From an uncultured Aminicenantes bacterium (GTDB taxonomy: Bacteria; Acidobacteriota; Aminicenantia; UBA2199), in NCBI GenBank assembly GCA_965195285.1, contig CBDAFS010000011.1, positions 1 to 64,000 of the forward strand: a stretch of DNA of 64,000 bases, read 5' to 3'. Below the pieces are notes generated by a model. It was given only the letters and a program-made list of their open reading frames with translations. It had not been told where the DNA came from and did no database searches. The translations under genes were made by a program, and so were the position numbers. Numbering within the stretch: position 1 is the stretch's first letter; each line of letters starts with the position of its first letter. This document shows positions 7,641 to 64,000 of this stretch, piece after piece.

Positions 7641-10600
7641 ATGCATAAAGTCAAAAGAGAAACGAAAGACATAAACATAATGGATTACAGCAAGATAAAG
7701 ATCAGCATAGCTTCTCCTGAGATTATCACCGGCTGGTCTTCGGGTGAAGTCACCAAACCCGAAACCATAAATTACCGAACCTTTAAGCCTGAAAGGGACG
7801 GATTGTTCTGTGCCAAAATTTTCGGTCCCACCCAGGATTATCGGTGTCTGTGCGGAAAGTACAAGGGATTGAAATACAAGGGAATTGTTTGTGAGAAATG
7901 CGGTGTTGAAGTGACATTATCCGCTGTCCGTAGGGAAAGAATGGGCCATATCGAATTGAATTCAAAAGTTGCCCATATTTGGTTTTTCAAGGGAATACCC
8001 TCCCGGATCGGTGTGATTCTTGAAATCACCTCCAAGGAACTTGAACATATTGTTTATTTTGAGAATTATATTGTGGTTGATCCCGGATCGGTTCCCAATC
8101 TCAAATTCAAACAGATCTTACTGGAAGAGGAATATGTCAACCTAATCGAAAAATATGGTGAAGACGCATTTAAATCGGAAATGGGGGCAGAGGCTATTTA
8201 TGAACTTTTAAAAATGATTGACCTGGAAAAAGAGGTCAAGGAGCTGAAATCCCGTCTAAAAGTTGAAAAATCTATTCAGAAAAAGAAAAACATGTCCAGA
8301 AGGTTTAAGCTGATGGAGGATTTTCTGCTCTCAGGGAACCGACCGGAATGGATGATTTTGAATGTGGTTCCTGTACTTCCACCGGATCTTCGTCCACTGG
8401 TCAGACTGGATGGGGGGCGATTTGCCAGTTCGGATTTGAATGATCTTTATCGCCGGGTCATCAACCGTAACAATCGTCTGAAACGGCTGCTGGATTTGAA
8501 AGCCCCTGAACTGATCATCAAAAACGAGAAACGAATGCTTCAGGAAGCCGTGGATGCCCTGTTTGACAATCAGAAACGCAACAAGAGTTATATGAGTTCC
8601 CAGAAGAGACCCTTGAAATCACTTTCCGATGCCCTGAAAGGCAAACAGGGAAGATTCAGACAGAATCTGCTGGGAAAGCGAGTCGATTATTCGGGGCGGT
8701 CGGTTATTGTGGTAAATCCCAAATTGAAACTGGATGAGTGTGGCATTCCGAAGAAAATGGCTATCGAGCTATTCAAACCTTTCATATACAACAAACTGGA
8801 AAAAAAAGGGATGGTCACCACCTTGAGAGTGGCCCGGAACTGGGTGGAAGAAAACAGGGATGAAATCTGGGATGCCCTGGATGAAGTGATCAAAGAACAT
8901 ACGGTTTTGCTTAACCGGGCGCCCACCCTGCATCGTTTGGGGATCCAGGCTTTTCGGCCAATGCTGGTCGAAGGCAATGCCATCAACCTGCATCCGCTGG
9001 TCTGTCCGGCTTTCAATGCAGATTTTGACGGGGACCAGATGGCAGTCCATATTCCGCTATCACTGGAAGCCCAGGCCGAGTCCAAGATCTTGATGCTGTC
9101 CACCAATAATATTCTATCTCCGGCCAATGGCATGCCTCTGGCGGTTCCTACCCAGGATATGATCCTGGGCTTTTATTACCTGACTTTCAGCAAGAGGAAT
9201 TTGAAAGGCGAAAACATGATATTTTGTTCAGAAAAGGATGTGTTGCAGGCCTATGAAAGTAAAATAGTGAATTTGAATGCCAAGGTTCGGGTTAAATACC
9301 ACGGTGAGTTAAAAAATCTGGAGACCTATGTTCTGGATCCGCAGGATATTGTAAATTGTCCGATTACCGAATTCAAAAAAGGCGACAACCATCTGCTGGT
9401 TACCACTCCGGGCCGGGTCATACTGAATCAACTGCTGCCTGAAAACACCCCGTTTATCAATGGTTTATTGAAAAAGAAAGGTATCCAGAATCTGGTTTAT
9501 TATATTTATTTAAATCAGGGATTTGAACCCACCTGTAAGACTCTGGACAGGCTGAAAGAAACCGGATTTGAATATGCCACCAAGGCCGGCTTTACCATTG
9601 GTATTTCAGACCTGGTCGTACCTCCGGAGAAAGAGAGTATCATCAAAAAAACCGAGATAGAGCTGGAAAAAATTGAAAAACTGTATAATGACGGATTTTT
9701 GACTGCCAATGAGAGGCATAACAATATTATTGATAAATGGAGTAAGGCCACCGATCAGATACGGGAAACCATGTTTGCCGGGATGAAAAAGATGAGTTTT
9801 GAAGGTGATACGCTTAATCCACTTTTTGTCATGTCCGATTCCGGTGCCCGGGGCAGCAAGGATCAGTTGAAACAGCTGGCCGGGATGAGGGGATTGATGG
9901 CCAAGCCGTCCGGAGAAATACTGGAAACTCCCATTACCGCCAATTTCAAAGAGGGTTTGTCGGTGCTGCAGTATTTTATTTCCACCCATGGGGCCCGAAA
10001 GGGCCTGGCCGATACGGCTCTAAAGACAGCCGATGCCGGATATTTAACCCGGAAACTGGTGGATGCAGCTATCGAGATTATCGTTAAAGAGGAAGATTGC
10101 GGAACCATCAATGGAATTGAAGTCTCGGCCATTATTGAAAACGGAAAAGAGATCGAACCTCTGATTGAACGGATTATCGGCCGATATCCGGTAGATGACA
10201 TATCCTGTCCGGACAAACCGAAAAAGATTCTTGTCAAAGCCGAAGAAGAAATCGATGAGTACAAGGGCAAGGAAATCATTGACAGCGGTATTTTAAAGGT
10301 TAGAATCCGCTCGGCACTCACATGCGAAACCAGGTCCGGTATATGCAAGAAGTGCTATGGCAGAAACCTGAGCACCGGCAAATTGATCGAACTGGGAGAG
10401 GCAGTCGGTATTATTGCCGCTCAATCCATCGGTGAGCCGGGCACCCAGTTGACCATGAGAACCTTTCATATCGGTGGTGTGGCCTCCGGAACCGAAGGCC
10501 AGACCAAATTGAATTCCGGGTACGAGGGTATGGTTCATTATAAGGATCTGGAAATTATCAAGGATAGGAATAATGAATTCATTGCCATGAACCGGGTCGG

Positions 10601-11789
10601 TTCGATTCAAATCCTGGATTCAAAAAAGAGGGAAAAAGCCATTTATCCGGTTGCCTATGGATCCAAGGTTTTAGTCTCTGAAGGCCAATTGGTTAAAAAG
10701 GGTGATCTGTTGTTGGAATGGGATACCTTTGCCAATTCAATTCTGGCCAATGATCAGGGAATTGTTAATCTCAAGGATCTGGAAGAAAACATTTCTTATG
10801 TGGAAGACCGTGATGAGGCGACCGGTAAAATTACCAAAACCGTTATTGACATCAAAAATGAAAAACTGAGAGACGAATTGCAACCCCATATTGTGATCCG
10901 GGATAAGAAAACCAATAAAATCAAGCGCAAACACCTGTTACCGGTTGGAGCTCATCTTTCGGTAAAGAATGGAGTTGAGATCAAGGCGGGTGATGTGCTG
11001 GCCAAGATTCCCTCTGAATTTGCCAAAACCAAGGATATTACCGGCGGTCTCCCCAGGGTCACCGAATTGTTTGAAGCCCGGAAACCGAAAAATCCGGCCA
11101 AAATGGCCCAGATTGACGGTGTGGTGGAATTTGGAAAACTTCAGAAGGGATCTCAAAAAATTATCATCAGGCCTTTTGATAAAAATGTGAAACCGGATGA
11201 ACACAATATTCCCAGGGGAGCCTATATCATCGTGGGCGATGGCGATAAAATCAATGCCGGCACTGCATTGATGGATGGCCCTCTGAATCTGGTTGATATT
11301 CTGACTGTGCTGGGAGAACACAAGCTGGCTGAATATCTAGTGAAGGAAATTCAGGATGTGTACCGCCTTCAGGGTGTGAGCATCAATGATAAGCATATAG
11401 AGATTATTATACGGCAGATGATCAAGTGGCGGAGGATTGAGGATGTGGGTGATACCAAATTCATCCCCGGACAGATCATTGAGAAATGGAAATTCGAAGA
11501 TGAAAATACCGCGACTGAAGCCGGAGGTGGAAAACCGGCCAAAGCCGAAACCGCACTTCTACCGATTTCCAGAGCCGCCCTGGCCTATGACAGCTTTATC
11601 TCGGCGGCCGCCTTCCAGGAAACCACCCGGGTCCTGACCGAGGCTGCCATAGCCGGTAAGGAAGACCATCTTCTGGGTATTAAAGAAAATGTAACCATGG
11701 GGCGTCTCATTCCGGCAGGGACCGGTTATTCTTATTACCATAAGTTCGAAATGGATGAATTGGAAGATGTGTTTAAGACTGCCAAATAA
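7641..11789 (+). CDS. rpoC: RNA polymerase beta' subunit
   Basis: NADFDGD catalytic motif, Zn-binding Cys motifs, TQLTMRTFH trigger loop with insert. Confidence 0.99.
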
Positions 11790-11824
11790 CCGGATTTGAC
11801 AGATAAATAGCCCAAAACCTTTTT

Positions 11825-11850
11825 TATGTCCCTCTATCGGGACATATTTT
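11825..11850 (+). terminator. Putative intrinsic terminator after rpoC
   Basis: TATGTCCC-tctatc-GGGACATA followed by TTTT. Confidence 0.55.
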
Positions 11851-11914
11851 ACCCCCTCATTCTGGAAACACACTTGCATATTACCTTTCAGGAACAAAAT
11901 CAAGGAGCCATACC

Positions 11915-14255
11915 ATGATGAAATTTTTGACTTTTTGTATGTGCACTCTTTTATTCATTTCTTTTTGTTTTCCCCAGGAAAACATTCGGGAGAAAGTCAG
12001 TGTGGACTGGTGGGTGGTCCCCCTGTTTGCCATTGATCAGGAGGGTAATTCGGTCAATGACTTGGCTTCCGGGGATATTCAGTTAGAAGTGAATGGTCAG
12101 AGAGTAATTGATTTCAGCCTCTACAAGAGATCCTTTAACGTGGCTGAAAAAGTCATTCAGAAAAAATTATCACCCCGGGTTGAGAAACGAAAGATGATTT
12201 TTTTCCTGTTTGACCTGGCCTTTTCCAGCCTGGAAAATCTGGAAAGGTCTAAAAAAGTGGCGGCCGATATTATCCGGGATGCTTCGGATTCCAGCCTGTT
12301 TTCGGTTTTTACCATCGATCCCTTTGCCGGCCTGATTTATCAGGCCGGACCCAGCAGCCAGAAGGCGGATGTGTTAAAGGTCATTACAAACAATGTTACC
12401 CTGAATCCCAATGCCAAGTCGATCAAGACCATCTTGGCCCTGGCCAGAATGGCCCAGATATCCGGAAGCAAGGGACCGAAATATACTGGCTCGGAAATGG
12501 GATTCCTGCTGGAGGAAATAAGTCACAGCCTGAAAAATACCAACCGGAAATTTTTTCGCAGCTTTGAAGCCCTGTACTTTGCCCTGAATTCTATCAAGGA
12601 CAACAAGTTTGTATACCTGTTCTCAGAAGGTATTTCCTTTTTCGCCCGCAAAGTCATCCGGCATGACGAGGGTGAATACCAGTCTTTTATCCGGCAGGGC
12701 GGCCGGTTATATGGGGCGAAGCGGCTCAGTGCTGTTCATAATCAATCCTGCCGGTGCCCTGGAACACTTTACCAATATTGAATCCGGAGAAGATTCCCTG
12801 CGATACCTGGCTCTGGAGAGCGGAGGCAAATATATGGAGGGAGACCGGGAAACCCTCTCCTTTCGCATTAAAAACCTGCACCGGGCATATTACGAAATCG
12901 CCTTTGCCGAACTCAAATCCTATCGGGGCCGAGTGAGAAAGATCTTCATTCAATGCCGGCGTAAAGGGGTGAAGGTCCATACCCTGCACTCTCTGGAAAA
13001 GAGAAAATCATATCAGGATATGAATGAAATAGAACGGGAGATTTTTGCAGTCAACGTGATCAACCGGAATCCCTTCTTTATTCGGGGAATAACCTTGATG
13101 GAAGTTATTGTCAAAAAAAAGATCACCAGGAAAAACCGGGAAATATACCGAATCATGCTGCCCAAAAACTGGCTTCAAAAAGAGGTTGATATATATAAGG
13201 CCTGGTTCCGAGAATCCGATGGTGATATAAGTGTTAAAAAGACATCCATTGTTCCTCAAAAAGCGGAAACGGAAATAGATTTTGAGATCAAAGATAAAAG
13301 CCGGTGCTATTTCGTATTGTTCAATCGGCAGGAGCAGAGTGTTCTGGTCCGGGGGATCGAAATCCCGAAACAAGAACTTCCGAATTTTAAAAAGATTCCG
13401 GAAATCAAGGCCATGAGCAATAAATTCGAATACAGCCGGGAACTGTCCACCCTGCTGGCCGGGGCAGCCGGGTATTGTCAGAAGTTGAAACAGGCCGGCT
13501 TTCACTATTTTTGCCAGGAAAAAGTGGTGGAAAGCCTGAGTATTTTCAAACCCAGCGAGGTCTCTGATATCAGTTTTCGTGAAGACCGGGCTTCCCAGAC
13601 GGACATGCTGAGAAGGACCGAGCCCAAACTGGGATTGAAGAGAAGAAAGGTGACCAGGTACCGGTTTGATTATCAGATCATAAAAGACAAGGATGAGATT
13701 AAGGAACAGCGTAAATTGATTTCCAAGAAAAACGAGAAAAATGATGGCCAGGGTGTGGAATTCAGAATCAAAAACTTTCTGGCGGAAAAGGCGGTATTTT
13801 CTCCGGTTACGCTCCTGGCCCGGGAACGGCAGCCCCTTTATGAATTCAGATTTGTGAAGTATGACAAATTAAATAGAGTCAGGTGTGCGGTAATAGAAGT
13901 TTTACCCAGGCGTAAGAATGATGCCCGATTTGTGTACGGACAGGTCTGGATCGACACTTCTGATCATTCGGTTTTAAAAATAAAGGCCAATCCCCGTTCC
14001 GTTGCAGGTTATAACAAACTTGAATTTATTGCCAGGAATTTAATGGCCAAGTTGTTTCTGAGTTTGGAGATTCATTTCAACATCGTTCATCAGGGGATCC
14101 GGTTCCCGGACAGTGTCATTCTCAGCGAATTGTATAAGGGCGGGCCACTCATCACCCGGCATATGGGATCCCGGGGCTGGGAGAGGCTCAAGACCGAGTA
14201 TACTTACAAAAATTATAAGTTCTTCGTGGTGGACACCAAGGTGTCGGCCGAATAA
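11915..14255 (+). pseudogene. Secreted VWA-like domain protein split by a +1 frameshift near 12697-12699 (ORFs 11915..12781 and 12609..14255)
   Basis: Signal peptide, VSVDWWVVPLFAID, FLFD and YLFSEG motifs in the first frame; SLRYLALESGGKY in the second. Removing one G from CAGGGCGGCC joins them as QSFIRQ-AAGYMGRSG. Confidence 0.75.
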
Positions 14256-55831: not shown

Positions 55832-58243
55832 TTATAAATCTTTGAAAATGTTTGATCTTTCTTTGTATTCTTTTTTCTTTTTTGCCAGAATCTTTTTAAA
55901 TCGGGGATCATCCATCAGTTTGTTGTAGCAAGGATTGTTCAACAGGTGCAGGTAGGAATGGGTCCTGGGATTTGCTTTCATGCTTTGTTCGAGGGATCCA
56001 AAAGCTTCCTCTTTCATCCCCAGCAGGGCATACACTTTGTCGTAAGGTTCCTTCATGGTTCTCAATGCCAGTTCTTTTTCCCCTTTTACTGCATAAAGCA
56101 AAGCCCTGTAACTCCAGATATCTGGATTTTGCCCATCCAGTATTTCGGCGATTTTTAACTCCTGTTCGGCCTTCTGGTATTGTGAAAGTAAAATGAGCGA
56201 ATAGGAATACCATAGATGGTACTCGGCATCGTCGGGATCCAATGCCAGGACCTTTTTATACTGGATAGCGGCTTTTTCCCAGGCTCCCATTTCCATATAA
56301 CACCGGGCCAGAACCATAGGTGTATATACATAGAGAGGATTGAGCTCAATGGCTTTAATTAAATATTTTAGGGCTTTATCTTCCAGTCCAACCCGATCAA
56401 GGATTAAACCGATGACATGATTCCCTTCGGCGCTATTGGGGTTTAATTGGTTGGCTTTGTTTAAGCACTGGCTGGTATGCTGGTGATCTCCTTTAAGGTA
56501 GTAAAGCCAGCCCATTCCCTGGTTGGTTTCGGGTATATCCGGGTTTAATTGATAAGCTTTCTTTATATGTATTTCTACCTGATGGCGATCTTCTTTGTTG
56601 CCGGTTATTTCGTAATGTTGTTGATGAATCCATGCCAAACTGGAATAGGTCAGGGCGTTATTGGGATCAATTCCCAGAGCCTTGTTCAGCAGGTTTTTGG
56701 CTTTAATAAAATCCTCCTCTTGTTTTGTAATGACATAGGAGGTGATCAACTGACTGGCCTTTAGTAAATATTCGTATGATTCAATATCCTCTGGTTTTTC
56801 TGTTTTCAAGATTTCCGGTGAAAACTGCAACCGTAATGCCTGGGCTATGGATTGGGATATGTTCTCCTGCACCTTAAAAATACTTTCCAATTTTCGGTCA
56901 AAGGTTTCAGCCCAGAGGTGAAAGCCGTCCTCAATATTGATCAGCTGGGCCGAGACCCGGATGTTATCCTGTTCTTTACGGAGACTTCCTTCTAATATTG
57001 TAGACACACCTAATTCTTTTCCTATTTGTTTAATATCTTTTTTGGTATTTTTATAACGCATGACCGAGGTGCGGGAAATCACTTTTAGTTCCCGGATATG
57101 GGTGAGTTTGGTGATGATATCCTCGGTCATGCCGTCGCAGAAGTATTCCTGATCCTTGTTGGCACTCAGATCCATAAAGGGAAGCACGGCAATGGAATTT
57201 GTCCAGGAGCTCTGAGTGATTGTTTTTGAGATGGGTTCTGGTGTGGAAGGTTTGCCTTTGAATAAAATGTATCCTCCGATTAAGATGGCCAGGATTACGA
57301 CAATAATCATAGTCGGCAGCAGCAACCTGGATGTTTTCCGGGCAGTATCTCTGATGTGGATACCCTTCTCGGAAACAGTTCTGTCTTTTATGGATTCCAG
57401 ACCACTCAGCAATCCGGTTACCTCCTGAAAACGGTTGTCCGGTTCTTTGGCCAGGGATTTCTCAATCAGTTGCCAGAGTTCGGTTGGTGTTTCCGGCCGG
57501 AGTTCAGTCAGTGGTTTTGGCTTCTCATTTAATATGGCATAGATAATGGCCTGTTCGTAGTCCCCTTTAAAGGGCAATTGCCCGGTGATCATTTCATAAA
57601 GGATCACACCTAGTGACCAGATGTCTGTTCTGTGATCTACCTCTTTACCCATTGCCTGTTCCGGGGACATGTAATTGGTCGTGCCCATGGTGGTGCCGAT
57701 TTTGGTGATGGAGGGCGAATAGCCATTCGCTTCTACACGCAACTTGGCTAATCCGAAATCCAGGATTTTTACCCGGCCATCTTTATCGATCAGAATATTC
57801 TGGGGTTTGATATCCCGGTGAACGATTCCGGCTTCGTGGGCTTTTTGGAGGCCCTCGCAGATTTGGATAGTTATATTGATGATTCCTTTTATTGTAGGGG
57901 CAATCCTCGCGGTTGCCCGGGCAGGGGCAAGCCCTGCCCCTACACCTGATATTATTTCCTTTAAGGTCTGGCCTTCCACATATTCCATGGCGATGTAGGT
58001 TTGATCTTCGTGTTCGTTGATTTCATAAATTGTAACGATGTTGGGATGGTTCAGGGCGGCAGCAGCCTGGGCTTCCCGCTGAAACCGTTCCACCGCATCT
58101 TTATCCTTGGTAAATCCCTGGGGTAAGAATTTAAGAGCCACTTTTCGTTTTAACTTGGTATCTTCAGCTAAAAATACTTCCCCCATGCCTCCTTCTCCGA
58201 TTTTTTCCAGGATTTTGTAGTGGGAAACAATTTGATTGATCAA
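55832..58243 (-). CDS. Hanks-type Ser/Thr kinase-TM-TolB-like-TPR protein with two REP-derived in-frame inserts (probable TTG start at 58243)
   Basis: GEGGMG, VALK, HRDIKPQN, DFG, YMSPE, DIWSLG; TM; SIAVLPF..EYFCDG; TPRs; AAGGAG 7 nt before TTG. Confidence 0.95.
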   Translation of the reverse strand: MINQIVSHYKILEKIGEGGMGEVFLAEDTKLKRKVALKFLPQGFTKDKDAVERFQREAQAAAALNHPNIVTIYEINEHEDQTYIAMEYVEGQTLKEIISGVGAGLAPARATARIAPTIKGIINITIQICEGLQKAHEAGIVHRDIKPQNILIDKDGRVKILDFGLAKLRVEANGYSPSITKIGTTMGTTNYMSPEQAMGKEVDHRTDIWSLGVILYEMITGQLPFKGDYEQAIIYAILNEKPKPLTELRPETPTELWQLIEKSLAKEPDNRFQEVTGLLSGLESIKDRTVSEKGIHIRDTARKTSRLLLPTMIIVVILAILIGGYILFKGKPSTPEPISKTITQSSWTNSIAVLPFMDLSANKDQEYFCDGMTEDIITKLTHIRELKVISRTSVMRYKNTKKDIKQIGKELGVSTILEGSLRKEQDNIRVSAQLINIEDGFHLWAETFDRKLESIFKVQENISQSIAQALRLQFSPEILKTEKPEDIESYEYLLKASQLITSYVITKQEEDFIKAKNLLNKALGIDPNNALTYSSLAWIHQQHYEITGNKEDRHQVEIHIKKAYQLNPDIPETNQGMGWLYYLKGDHQHTSQCLNKANQLNPNSAEGNHVIGLILDRVGLEDKALKYLIKAIELNPLYVYTPMVLARCYMEMGAWEKAAIQYKKVLALDPDDAEYHLWYSYSLILLSQYQKAEQELKIAEILDGQNPDIWSYRALLYAVKGEKELALRTMKEPYDKVYALLGMKEEAFGSLEQSMKANPRTHSYLHLLNNPCYNKLMDDPRFKKILAKKKKEYKERSNIFKDL
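57713..57736 (-). repeat. Degenerate GTAG-type REP-like palindrome in the kinase activation loop
   Basis: Minus strand GTAG-AAGCGAAT-GGCT-ATTCGCCC, encoding VEANGYSP. Confidence 0.7.
57894..57943. mobile_element. Tail-to-tail doublet of GTAG-type REP-like palindromes (minimal REPIN), in frame in the kinase domain
   Basis: GTAG-GGGCAATC-CTCGC-GGTTGCCC directly joined to GGGCAGGG-GCAAG-CCCTGCCC-CTAC; 25+25 nt. Confidence 0.88.
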
Positions 58244-58335
58244 CACTCCACTCCTTCCTGATTTATAACAAAAAAAAATTTTTATTACAATCCCCCCCTC
58301 GGGCATTTCCGGAATAATATTGGGGATTGCATTCC

Positions 58336-61585: not shown

Positions 61586-62668
61586 TTAATAACCTGGAGG
61601 AGGAGTGGTGGTCAGCTGTGAAAGAGACCGGCGGGTGCAGTAGGGGATGAAGTTCCGGTTATAGGATTTGTCGTAGGCATCACTGGCAAATTGCAGGGCA
61701 TACTCACAGTTGAAAACCGGCAATCCCTGTGATTGGAACAGGCTCAGGTTATTGAGGTATTCCTGGCGCCAGTCTTCCGGAACATTCCAGTCATAACCAT
61801 CCGGAACATTCCAGTTATCGGTGGCATCCCCTTCAAACCAGATGCCTTCCTGGGCAATTCCATCGATCAAAGAAAAAAGTTCGGGATGACCATTGGCCAG
61901 AGCCGAACCGTTCTGCTGAATGATAAAAAAAGGCGTGGTTCTGGTTTGGGCGTAATCCCTCATTTCCCGGATGAAGTTGATCATTTCTACCCGGGGATTT
62001 TTACCCTGCTTTTGGGCTGCTTCTATAACCGCCTCATTTTCAAATCCCTCGACCCAGTCCAGATAAATCCCGTCAAATCCGTCTTTTATGGTTTCATCAA
62101 TCATACTGTTGTAATCACCATAAGGACTGCTGTCCTGGTTATTTCCATGAATGACAATATCTTTCCAGCGGGGATCCCAATAAGCCACCGGGTAATTCCC
62201 TTCCCAACCGTCCGGGTCGTGGGTAAGGATAAAGTCGGGCCAGTCCGGAGGGCGGGGTTCACCCGGCTCCCATTCTGTTGACCAGGTCCAGTACCAGCGC
62301 CAGTCTTCTGCCTGGCCGATATCGATGTAAGCGATCAATAGTTTTCGGTGGATTCCGTCACTGGCCAATGAATTTTTTAATTGTTCCACCATTCCCTGGG
62401 TATCAAAAAGCTTGTCATCCGAAGACCAGTCCGTGCGGGTGGGTTCAACAACCAGCAGGTCATAATGGGAATTTGTTAATTGGTCCACAGCTCCGTTTTC
62501 AGAAATCTCCTGAATCTGGTAAGCCCAGAATTTGATTTCATTTAAAGGTAAAACGTTATCCGAAGATTGGCTGTCATCAATGGTTGAACAACAAACCAGG
62601 AACATTAGGATAGAAATAAAAACGGAGTAAGGTACATTTTTTTTACGAGAGATGGTTTTTCCGATCAT
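61586..62668 (-). CDS. GH114-like (MJ1477/TM1410 family) endo-alpha-1,4-polygalactosaminidase-like lipoprotein
   Basis: WAYQIQ, IAYIDIGQAEDWRWYW, GFDGIYLD, QQNG; lipobox-like LVCC. Confidence 0.87.
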   Translation of the reverse strand: MIGKTISRKKNVPYSVFISILMFLVCCSTIDDSQSSDNVLPLNEIKFWAYQIQEISENGAVDQLTNSHYDLLVVEPTRTDWSSDDKLFDTQGMVEQLKNSLASDGIHRKLLIAYIDIGQAEDWRWYWTWSTEWEPGEPRPPDWPDFILTHDPDGWEGNYPVAYWDPRWKDIVIHGNNQDSSPYGDYNSMIDETIKDGFDGIYLDWVEGFENEAVIEAAQKQGKNPRVEMINFIREMRDYAQTRTTPFFIIQQNGSALANGHPELFSLIDGIAQEGIWFEGDATDNWNVPDGYDWNVPEDWRQEYLNNLSLFQSQGLPVFNCEYALQFASDAYDKSYNRNFIPYCTRRSLSQLTTTPPPGY

Positions 62669-64000
62669 TCCTCCAGACCTATGTCCCTCAGCATCTTTTT
62701 GATCCTGGGGTCCTTTAATAGCGGATCACATCGGCCCAGGCCATATCGGCTCAGGATGGTAATATCTCGATGCTCGATCGCCTTTTTGTACCATTTTATG
62801 GCTTTATCCATATCACCCAATTCGGCATAAATAATGGCTATGATACCGGGATAGATGGATGCCACTTCTAAAAGAGTGGTTTGTAATTCCTGAAAAAATT
62901 TTCTGGCTTGATTTATTTTTCCCTGCGAGATTAGAATCCGGAATTTCATATATTCAAAAAATTGGGGAATTTTTGATTGGGATGCCAGTTCCAGTACTTT
63001 ATCATAAGACTTTTCCTCCAGGTAAGCATTTATCAGGATTAAATTAGCCAGCTCCATATTTGGATTTATTAATAAAACCCTGTTTACCAATTTTATTGAT
63101 TCAGGGTATTTTTTTTCTGATAGATAGATGTTTGCCCTTACCAATTTGGTAATGAATGAAAGGGGATTCAGTTCCTCGGCCAGGTTGAGCTCTTTGTGGG
63201 CTAATTTAAACTTCCCTCGGATAAAATAGTGCTCGGCCAGCCACTGGTGGGCAGTGGCATAGTTGGGATTTAGGGAAATGGATTTTTTTAATGCTTGCTC
63301 AGCGCCGGTGAAATCCCAGGTCCAGTAGTTTTTTATTCCGCCAAGGGCTGCATGTGCCTCGGCCAGGTTTTTATCCAGTTTTAAGGCTTTAAGACAATAT
63401 ATTTCAGCTTTAGGGTAAACAATTTTTGATTCTCCAAAGTGCAAATCGCCTATCACCAGGTAGGTCAGAGCCAGGCCAGCATAACCCAGAGCATAATCAG
63501 GATCTAACTCCACTGCTTTTTCAAAATAAGAAATGGCCTTTTCAAGGTCCTGAGAGGTCCGTCTGTTCCAGTGGGATCTGCCCTGCAGGTATAATTTATA
63601 TGCTTCTATATTTTCGGTGGGTTTTTGATAAATTCTTTTGCTGGTGGTCGGCAGAAGTTTTACTCTCAGAGTTTTGGCAATCTGGTTGGCCACATCACTC
63701 TGGATGTCGAAGATATCTTTCATCTCTCTGTCATAGGTTTCAGCCCAGAGATGGTCATCGGTCAGAGCATTGATCAATTGAGCGGTAATACGCACTTTCC
63801 CCTTGGTCTGGCGTACACTGCCCTCTAAAATCGTGGTGACACCCAGTTCATGGGCAATATCTTTTATCTTCTTTTCCTTATTTTTGAAATAAAAAACCGA
63901 AGTCCGGGAGGTCACTTTCAGGTCAGAGATTTTGGATAGCTGGGTAATGATATCTTCGGTAATGCCGTCACAAAAATACTCGTTTTGTTTGTCCTCACTC
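62665..64000 (-). CDS. TolB-like plus TPR C-terminal part of a second kinase-family paralogue (5'-truncated by window)
   Basis: Frame is open to the window edge: EYFCDGITEDIITQLSKISDLKVTSRTSV, LEGSVR, HLWAETYDR, TPRs, DPR C-terminus, paralleling 55832..58243. Confidence 0.88.
   Translation of the reverse strand, partial: SEDKQNEYFCDGITEDIITQLSKISDLKVTSRTSVFYFKNKEKKIKDIAHELGVTTILEGSVRQTKGKVRITAQLINALTDDHLWAETYDREMKDIFDIQSDVANQIAKTLRVKLLPTTSKRIYQKPTENIEAYKLYLQGRSHWNRRTSQDLEKAISYFEKAVELDPDYALGYAGLALTYLVIGDLHFGESKIVYPKAEIYCLKALKLDKNLAEAHAALGGIKNYWTWDFTGAEQALKKSISLNPNYATAHQWLAEHYFIRGKFKLAHKELNLAEELNPLSFITKLVRANIYLSEKKYPESIKLVNRVLLINPNMELANLILINAYLEEKSYDKVLELASQSKIPQFFEYMKFRILISQGKINQARKFFQELQTTLLEVASIYPGIIAIIYAELGDMDKAIKWYKKAIEHRDITILSRYGLGRCDPLLKDPRIKKMLRDIGLEE

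Follow-up and report, generated by a model that had tools for sequence, protein, structure and literature searches.

A GTAG-footed, REP-type hairpin lies in frame in the activation segment of an Aminicenantes Ser/Thr kinase

We analyzed a stretch of 64,000 nucleotides (the window) that includes P0001, a kinase gene with a short palindrome in its activation segment. The features of this locus are:

55832–58246, minus strand: host gene P0001, 804 amino acids, with a Hanks-type Ser/Thr kinase domain, a hydrophobic stretch, and TPR repeats; catalytic motifs intact
57566–57580, minus strand: approximate place where recombination switched the sequence, between residues 223 and 227; upstream resembles the neighboring paralogue, downstream resembles the gene's own orthologues
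57686–57712, minus strand: residues 179–187, the 3' half of the activation segment, which is host-derived; nearly invariant in carriers, and 17-residue alleles of the same haplotype share its ending
57704–57706, minus strand: codon of Thr181, which aligns with PknB Thr171 and lies seven residues before GT..Y; Thr in 168 of 177 loops
57713–57736, minus strand: GTAG-footed REP-type hairpin, in-frame residues 171–178 (VEANGYSP) of the activation segment, with alleles in homologues
57893–57944, no strand assigned: two REPs as an inverted doublet, within the alphaD-alphaE linker (residues 102–118); an insertion separate from the loop hairpin
62665–64000, minus strand: P0027, the neighboring paralogue, whose 3' part alone falls before the window end; both REP-derived peptides, including the Glu, are in its protein record

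The kinase domain of P0001 matches Pfam PF00069 (E = 3.2e-59), the TPR repeats are in the downstream part, and the hydrophobic stretch is likely a transmembrane segment. All of the kinase motifs were located: the Gly-rich loop, the beta3 Lys (VALK), the alphaC Glu, HRD, DFG, and the APE-like SPE. The open frame and the intact motifs rule out that P0001 is a pseudogene, and it is presumably active as a kinase. Its closest solved structures are kinases of the PknB/StkP type (PDB 6b2p, 1o6y, and 4eqm; E about 1e-57). Like them, P0001 is an RD kinase with intact motifs and a threonine that corresponds to Thr171 of PknB. Unlike PknB, it has a TPR C-terminal part, an activation segment of 22 residues (19 in PknB), eight of them REP-coded, and an Ile at the position of PknB Thr173. 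A structure model of P0001, built with 56 aligned sequences, had a pTM of 0.83, and its only segments with pLDDT under 50 were residues 103–112 and 164–187 (model numbers are P0001 numbers minus one), the first being the linker with the doublet and the second the activation segment. Elsewhere in the window, two overlapping ORFs of 288 and 548 amino acids (11915–14255, plus strand) follow rpoC, and neither matches a Pfam family at E 1e-5.

Immediately past the DFGLAKLR codons, the minus strand from 57736 to 57713 reads GTAGAAGCGAATGGCTATTCGCCC, 24 bases with the GTAG foot at 57736–57733 and an in-frame translation of VEANGYSP. In the predicted minimum-energy fold (-5.5 kcal/mol), a perfect 6-bp stem, GCGAAT/ATTCGC, closes a loop of GGCT. 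Two outer pairs are broken in the window allele, putatively by two G-to-A changes. The initial annotation had described this in-frame hairpin and its inner stem, which we found on the minus strand and in the predicted fold, and had called it a third stem sequence; comparison confirms that it is unlike either stem of the doublet.

By itself, the hairpin is weak evidence against chance. It has the size and shape of a REP (a palindrome of 20–40 bases with a G+C-rich stem), a likeness that is weak against shuffles alone: 17 of 200 shuffled sequences folded equally well (z = -1.62). The doublet in the same gene is a clear REP doublet (z = -3.16 against shuffles). Of 300 shuffled windows, 177 had one or more cases of a GTAG followed by any 6-bp stem (mean 0.91; three in the real window). 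A stricter geometry, with a stem ending in CCC, matches only the hairpin and one arm of the doublet and is satisfied by just 1 of 300 shuffles, with the proviso that this rule was picked after the element had been seen. A search of the 64-kb window for the hairpin stem with up to two mismatches found no second copy (1 match, with 2.93 expected by chance). Separately, exact GTAGGGGC matches in the window (1–64000) number two, both inside the kinase gene and none intergenic, which is unusual for a REP family. What raises the hairpin above chance is the evidence from homologues: the carriers, the octapeptide at a second site, and a related hairpin in the locus L034, each described below.

We parsed 145 kinase domains from 120 listed homologues and measured the loop from DFG to GT..Y. 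This loop has 17 residues in 110 domains and 22 residues in 16, and all 16 of the latter carry the octapeptide. The comparison of loop lengths that the initial annotation had called for thus separates relatives with the element from those without it. With targeted searches, the carriers came to 21 protein clusters with a 22-residue segment; the 16 full-length carriers have 40–90% identity (median 48), and the junctions of the insert are identical in 21/21. Homologues that lack the peptide have 17-residue loops, as empty sites would, and four of these (P0034, P0070, P0099, and P0269) are candidate empty-site alleles with the same haplotype and the same 3' end. P0315 also has the common 17-residue loop, and its C-terminal part is near-identical by eye. 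The hairpin thus adds five residues net and seems to replace about three or four host codons. At the second position of the octapeptide, 18 of the 21 carriers have Gly and three have Glu. Because Gly prevails among the homologues, the Glu form of the window is the derived one, which supports the proposal that the outer stem had decayed by a change of Gly to Glu.

Loop length varies from 16 to 49 residues among wider relatives. In distant kinases, 20 of 179 loops have 22 residues and no allele of the VEANGYSP type. One distant kinase, P0248, has a 22-residue loop with the pattern V-G-x-x-G-x-x-P followed by ITK.G.T, which may be an old descendant, the product of another REP, or chance. When we scanned with an alignment of the family, none of 111 loops in 73 loci (among the matches listed, mostly from distant kinases, and with the host genome not part of the set) had the window allele. 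The few labels that give the source of close homologues name mostly Candidatus Aminicenantes and Acidobacteriota, and Thermodesulfovibrionales and Desulfobacteraceae once each.

Related peptides and hairpins occur at other sites as well. Of 87 relatives, five show the same octapeptide pattern in the beta3-alphaC loop, which in them has 15 residues rather than 11; these carriers (P0012, P0033, P0077, P0080, and P0090) mark a third insertion site. In L034, which encodes an Acidobacteriota kinase, a sister hairpin with a 9-bp stem was verified on DNA at the same point of the activation segment. Its junctions are different, and it is an independent insertion at the same spot. Hairpins of the GTAGGGGCG type are found in L033 and on a Nostoc plasmid (L074), and sister elements with compensatory stem variants were seen in the DNA of L034 and L033 and on that plasmid. 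The REP-type origin given in the initial annotation is therefore supported, by the second-site octapeptide, the L034 sister hairpin, and the GTAGGGGCG hairpins. Apart from L034, the exact hairpin family was absent from the 73 loci (among the matches listed). Plasmid searches with the window element, the doublet, and the L034 element gave only short, near-chance matches, one of which is the Nostoc sister hairpin. What looked like a free REP copy in L034 is really the same intragenic element read from the opposite strand.

In-frame intragenic REPs are already known, and it is the location in the activation segment that is new, as far as the open-access literature shows. In that literature, figures and bioRxiv supplements aside, we found no earlier report of a REP in a kinase activation segment; nor did we find, in open-access sources, an earlier report of the octapeptide motif or of these kinase paralogues in Aminicenantes. 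According to Di Nocera et al. 2013 (PMC3733652), intragenic GTAG REPs, both singles and dimers, have been catalogued and are suggested to be neutral in flexible linkers or loops, and the authors were unable to say if intragenic REPs last or matter. The window hairpin is like those elements in its GTAG foot, its short G+C-rich stem, and its occurrence as intragenic singles and dimers. It differs from them, as they are described there, in lying in the activation segment, in its presence in 21 protein clusters (there, one gene each), and in that no high-copy extragenic family was found for it in the window, the listed loci, or the plasmids. Their list includes one Ser/Thr kinase, Oter_3506, with an insert at residues 625–640 of 848. 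TnpA-REP subclass 2.4 is described by Quentin et al. 2018 (PMC6006769) as having long REPs, a stem starting with three G-C pairs, and "double foot" forms, with in-frame REP insertions in the transposase gene itself, away from the catalytic site. The stem start of three G-C pairs, the double-foot forms in L034 and L033, and the in-frame coding insertions resemble this subclass as so described; here the host is a kinase and the transposase was not found, so this is a resemblance and not an assignment. Rickettsia palindromic elements are about 105–146 bases long and are likewise in frame in protein genes and translated (PMC3733652 and PMC3184786, the latter reviewing repeat-ORF fusions). By comparison with these accounts, the window unit has 24 bases and a GTAG foot, and it seems to replace a few host codons.

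The initial annotation regarded the hairpin as an older insertion, independent of the doublet. Independence is supported: 10 of the 17 carriers with a readable linker have no doublet, and P0034 has the doublet but not the loop element. The support does not extend to greater age. Among 64 close relatives, 20 have the loop element and eight have the doublet, and this wider distribution fits greater age of the loop element but does not date it, since decay is seen in only three proteins and segments have been shuffled among paralogues. That decay shows age can be ruled out (3/21 carriers).

The shuffling is apparent in P0001 itself. The last 444 residues of P0027 are identical to the translation of 62665–63999 of the window. 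P0001 and P0027 have 80–100% identity up to residue 230 and 28–53% beyond it, and P0001 has 79–100% identity after residue 230 to P0015, P0055, and P0065. In a breakpoint test with 15 aligned proteins, the switch fell between residues 223 and 227, and 0 of 1,000 shuffles reached its score. Both P0001 and P0027 carry the doublet and the Glu form, and the Glu is probably common to them through the recombinant tract. We also masked the two inserts and built a quick tree of 61 rows (60 of the 89 parsed domains, at an identity of at least 60%, and one outgroup). Its 17 carriers require 12 label changes, a number that 16 of 500 shuffles matched or undercut; these counts come from a tree in which 27 of 57 inner branches are unresolved and the starred branches force only three changes. 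The changes are scattered because the family is a mosaic. A 17-residue GQPG allele nests among the carriers on this tree, and it may have arisen by deletion rather than by never having gained the insert.

The explanation that we think is probably right is that the REP is a tolerated passenger in a flexible loop and was spread by recombination among paralogues. A single-foot GTAG REP would have inserted in frame into one kinase gene, in the N-terminal half of the activation segment, where length varies, in exchange for about three or four codons and with a net gain of five residues. DFG, the Thr181 switch, and the P+1 loop would have been left in place, and we propose that the kinase stayed viable because these were intact. 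The allele would then have been copied among many paralogues by duplication and recombination and would now be drifting, under weaker constraint than the adjoining host residues, with the change from Gly to Glu as one late step that P0001 and P0027 have in common through the recombinant tract. On this account, the insert presumably had a single origin and is presumably close to neutral; by analogy with published systems, and from the literature only, the insertion was presumably made by a TnpA-REP/RAYT tyrosine transposase. The model of P0001 has just two segments whose pLDDT is below 50, and each holds one of the inserts; the loop is also variable in length, as the passenger explanation would have it. 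Several points count against it. Conservation of the octapeptide is rather high for a neutral insert, in proteins with overall identity as low as 40%, which recombination could explain. Neither a free copy nor a transposase was found in the window, the listed loci, or the plasmids. Distant kinases have 22-residue loops without this allele, P0248 with its similar pattern among them, and the GQPG allele may reflect a deletion.

It is less likely, and on balance we do not favor it, that the peptide was exapted. Here, Tyr176 or Ser177-Pro178 would be phospho-sites, or the five extra residues would tune activation or docking, and selection would have spread the allele. This is close to the initial annotation, in which the insert supplied Tyr and Ser-Pro residues to the regulatory segment. 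The persistence of the allele in 21 clusters is in its favor, as is its apparent presence in several paralogues per contig (proven only for P0001 and P0027). So is the location of the insert within a segment that, according to PMC4389566, recruits substrates in PknB. Among the columns of the octapeptide, Val and Ala are conserved in 21/21 carriers and Gly in 20/21, and Pro (20/21) also speaks for exaptation, but Tyr and Ser are the most variable (17/21 each). His or Asn stands in for Tyr, and Ala or Leu for Ser (4/21 each), never Thr or Phe, so the inserted residues lack the conservation of phospho-acceptors and a Tyr/Ser-Pro switch is not supported. More broadly, 15 of 168 cells deviate in the REP-coded columns, versus 5 of 294 in the flanks, counting cells that are not independent events. 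The conserved threonine, Thr181, is host-derived: it lies outside the element and is invariant in 21/21 carriers. From the alignment to PknB, it is likely to be the main phospho-acceptor, or switch. As reported in PMC4389566, Thr171 of PknB is an autophosphorylation site, and in the double mutant with Thr173 activity was 300-fold lower. The 17-residue relatives within the same orthologue group also argue against exaptation. The element thus does supply residues to the activation segment, as had been claimed, and a role for them as phospho-sites was not supported.

We also doubt that the element is still at work on the DNA, with a REP-associated transposase nicking near the hairpin, so that stems are swapped and paralogue segments are exchanged and the REPs serve as handles for diversifying the repertoire. 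In its strongest form, which seems to us just as doubtful, a domesticated tyrosine transposase writes or swaps hairpin-coded peptides in the beta3-alphaC loop, the alphaD-alphaE linker, and the activation segment and promotes the exchange of segments among paralogues; if true, a repertoire of bacterial receptor kinases would have its regulatory loops diversified by a non-autonomous DNA element. At least three loops carry REP peptides, and the family is a mosaic. In vitro, according to PMC8266576, TnpA-REP cuts single-stranded DNA on either side of a REP and joins it again.

Part of the variation is suggestive of such activity. Separate sites (P0063, P0090, and L034, of which only L034 was verified on DNA) show the pairs Asn..Ser and His..Ala again, which correspond to a compensatory change of the stem, and a His..Ser pair was unseen at those two positions. 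At the sixth residue of the octapeptide, Tyr, His, Asn, and Asp are the only residues seen, which would follow if the loop base alone varied. Against this, template switching at imperfect palindromes also yields compensatory pairs, and the recurrence of Asn..Ser and His..Ala could equally come from template switching or from distinct members of the family. In a stem test on proteins only, 10 of 12 variants were compatible with the full stem, but so were 25 of 40 random single changes. In the DNA that we fetched, kinase genes showed no enrichment in REPs: they make up 21.6% of the bases and hold 15 of the 53 elements (p = 0.15, at a 7-bp stem threshold that excludes the window hairpin itself). 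About 45 codons separate the hairpin from the mapped breakpoint, and the window allele has lost two pairs. As for the enzyme, no Y1 transposase was found by a Pfam scan of 39 ORFs of the window or in the window by motif. The HUH motif had one match in 74 loci (73 of them among the matches listed), in a locus in which no REP element was found, and the transposase motif was absent from 40 kb of the Nostoc plasmid that has the sister hairpin.

Very unlikely, finally, is that an ordinary 22-residue loop gave rise to the hairpin by chance, or that several unrelated insertions gave similar peptides: the folding statistics are weak, 22-residue loops are common in distant kinases, and P0248 has a similar pattern, but the second-site octapeptide, the DNA-verified sister in L034, the identical junctions in all carriers, and the clear doublet in the same gene all argue otherwise.

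If the passenger explanation is right or not, the kinase family is a natural allelic series (the 17-residue loop, the Gly insert, and the Glu insert, along with the independent insertion at the same spot elsewhere). Because this series is at a measurable site, a simple kinase assay could distinguish neutral from exapted REP peptides. It also calls for caution: conserved short peptides in metagenomic kinases may stem from a DNA hairpin and recombination among paralogues and not from protein function.

Several other observations concern the insertion sites. By count, eight residues replace four in the beta3-alphaC loop and seventeen replace four in the alphaD-alphaE linker. A REP seems to substitute for about four host residues at all three insertion sites, which could reflect either mechanism or selection. 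In L034, seven in-frame GTAG hairpins lie at four places of one kinase gene (10001–11896), two of them in the activation segment. The alphaD-alphaE linker is an insertion hotspot, with diverse GTAG-hairpin peptides, single or doublet, that were verified on DNA in L033, L013, and L034. The linker hairpins in the first two are:

L033, 7358–7382: hairpin in the alphaD-alphaE linker
L033, 10298–10322: hairpin in the alphaD-alphaE linker
L033, 12852–12927: hairpin in the alphaD-alphaE linker
L013, 475–499: hairpin in the alphaD-alphaE linker

L033 has three tandem kinases of the P0001 family, the closest among the loci listed (47% over the full length), in a bin titled Patescibacteria; it is possibly mis-binned. 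In P0062, P0085, P0105, P0111, and P0113, the linker peptides have short internal repeats (NSKFKIQNSKF, ITHHPLPIT), and in L033, at about 10330–10365, the linker DNA consists of successive 7-base repeats that are imperfect. We take these short repeats, in the P0062 group and in L033, to be reminiscent of the cyanobacterial STRR heptamers.
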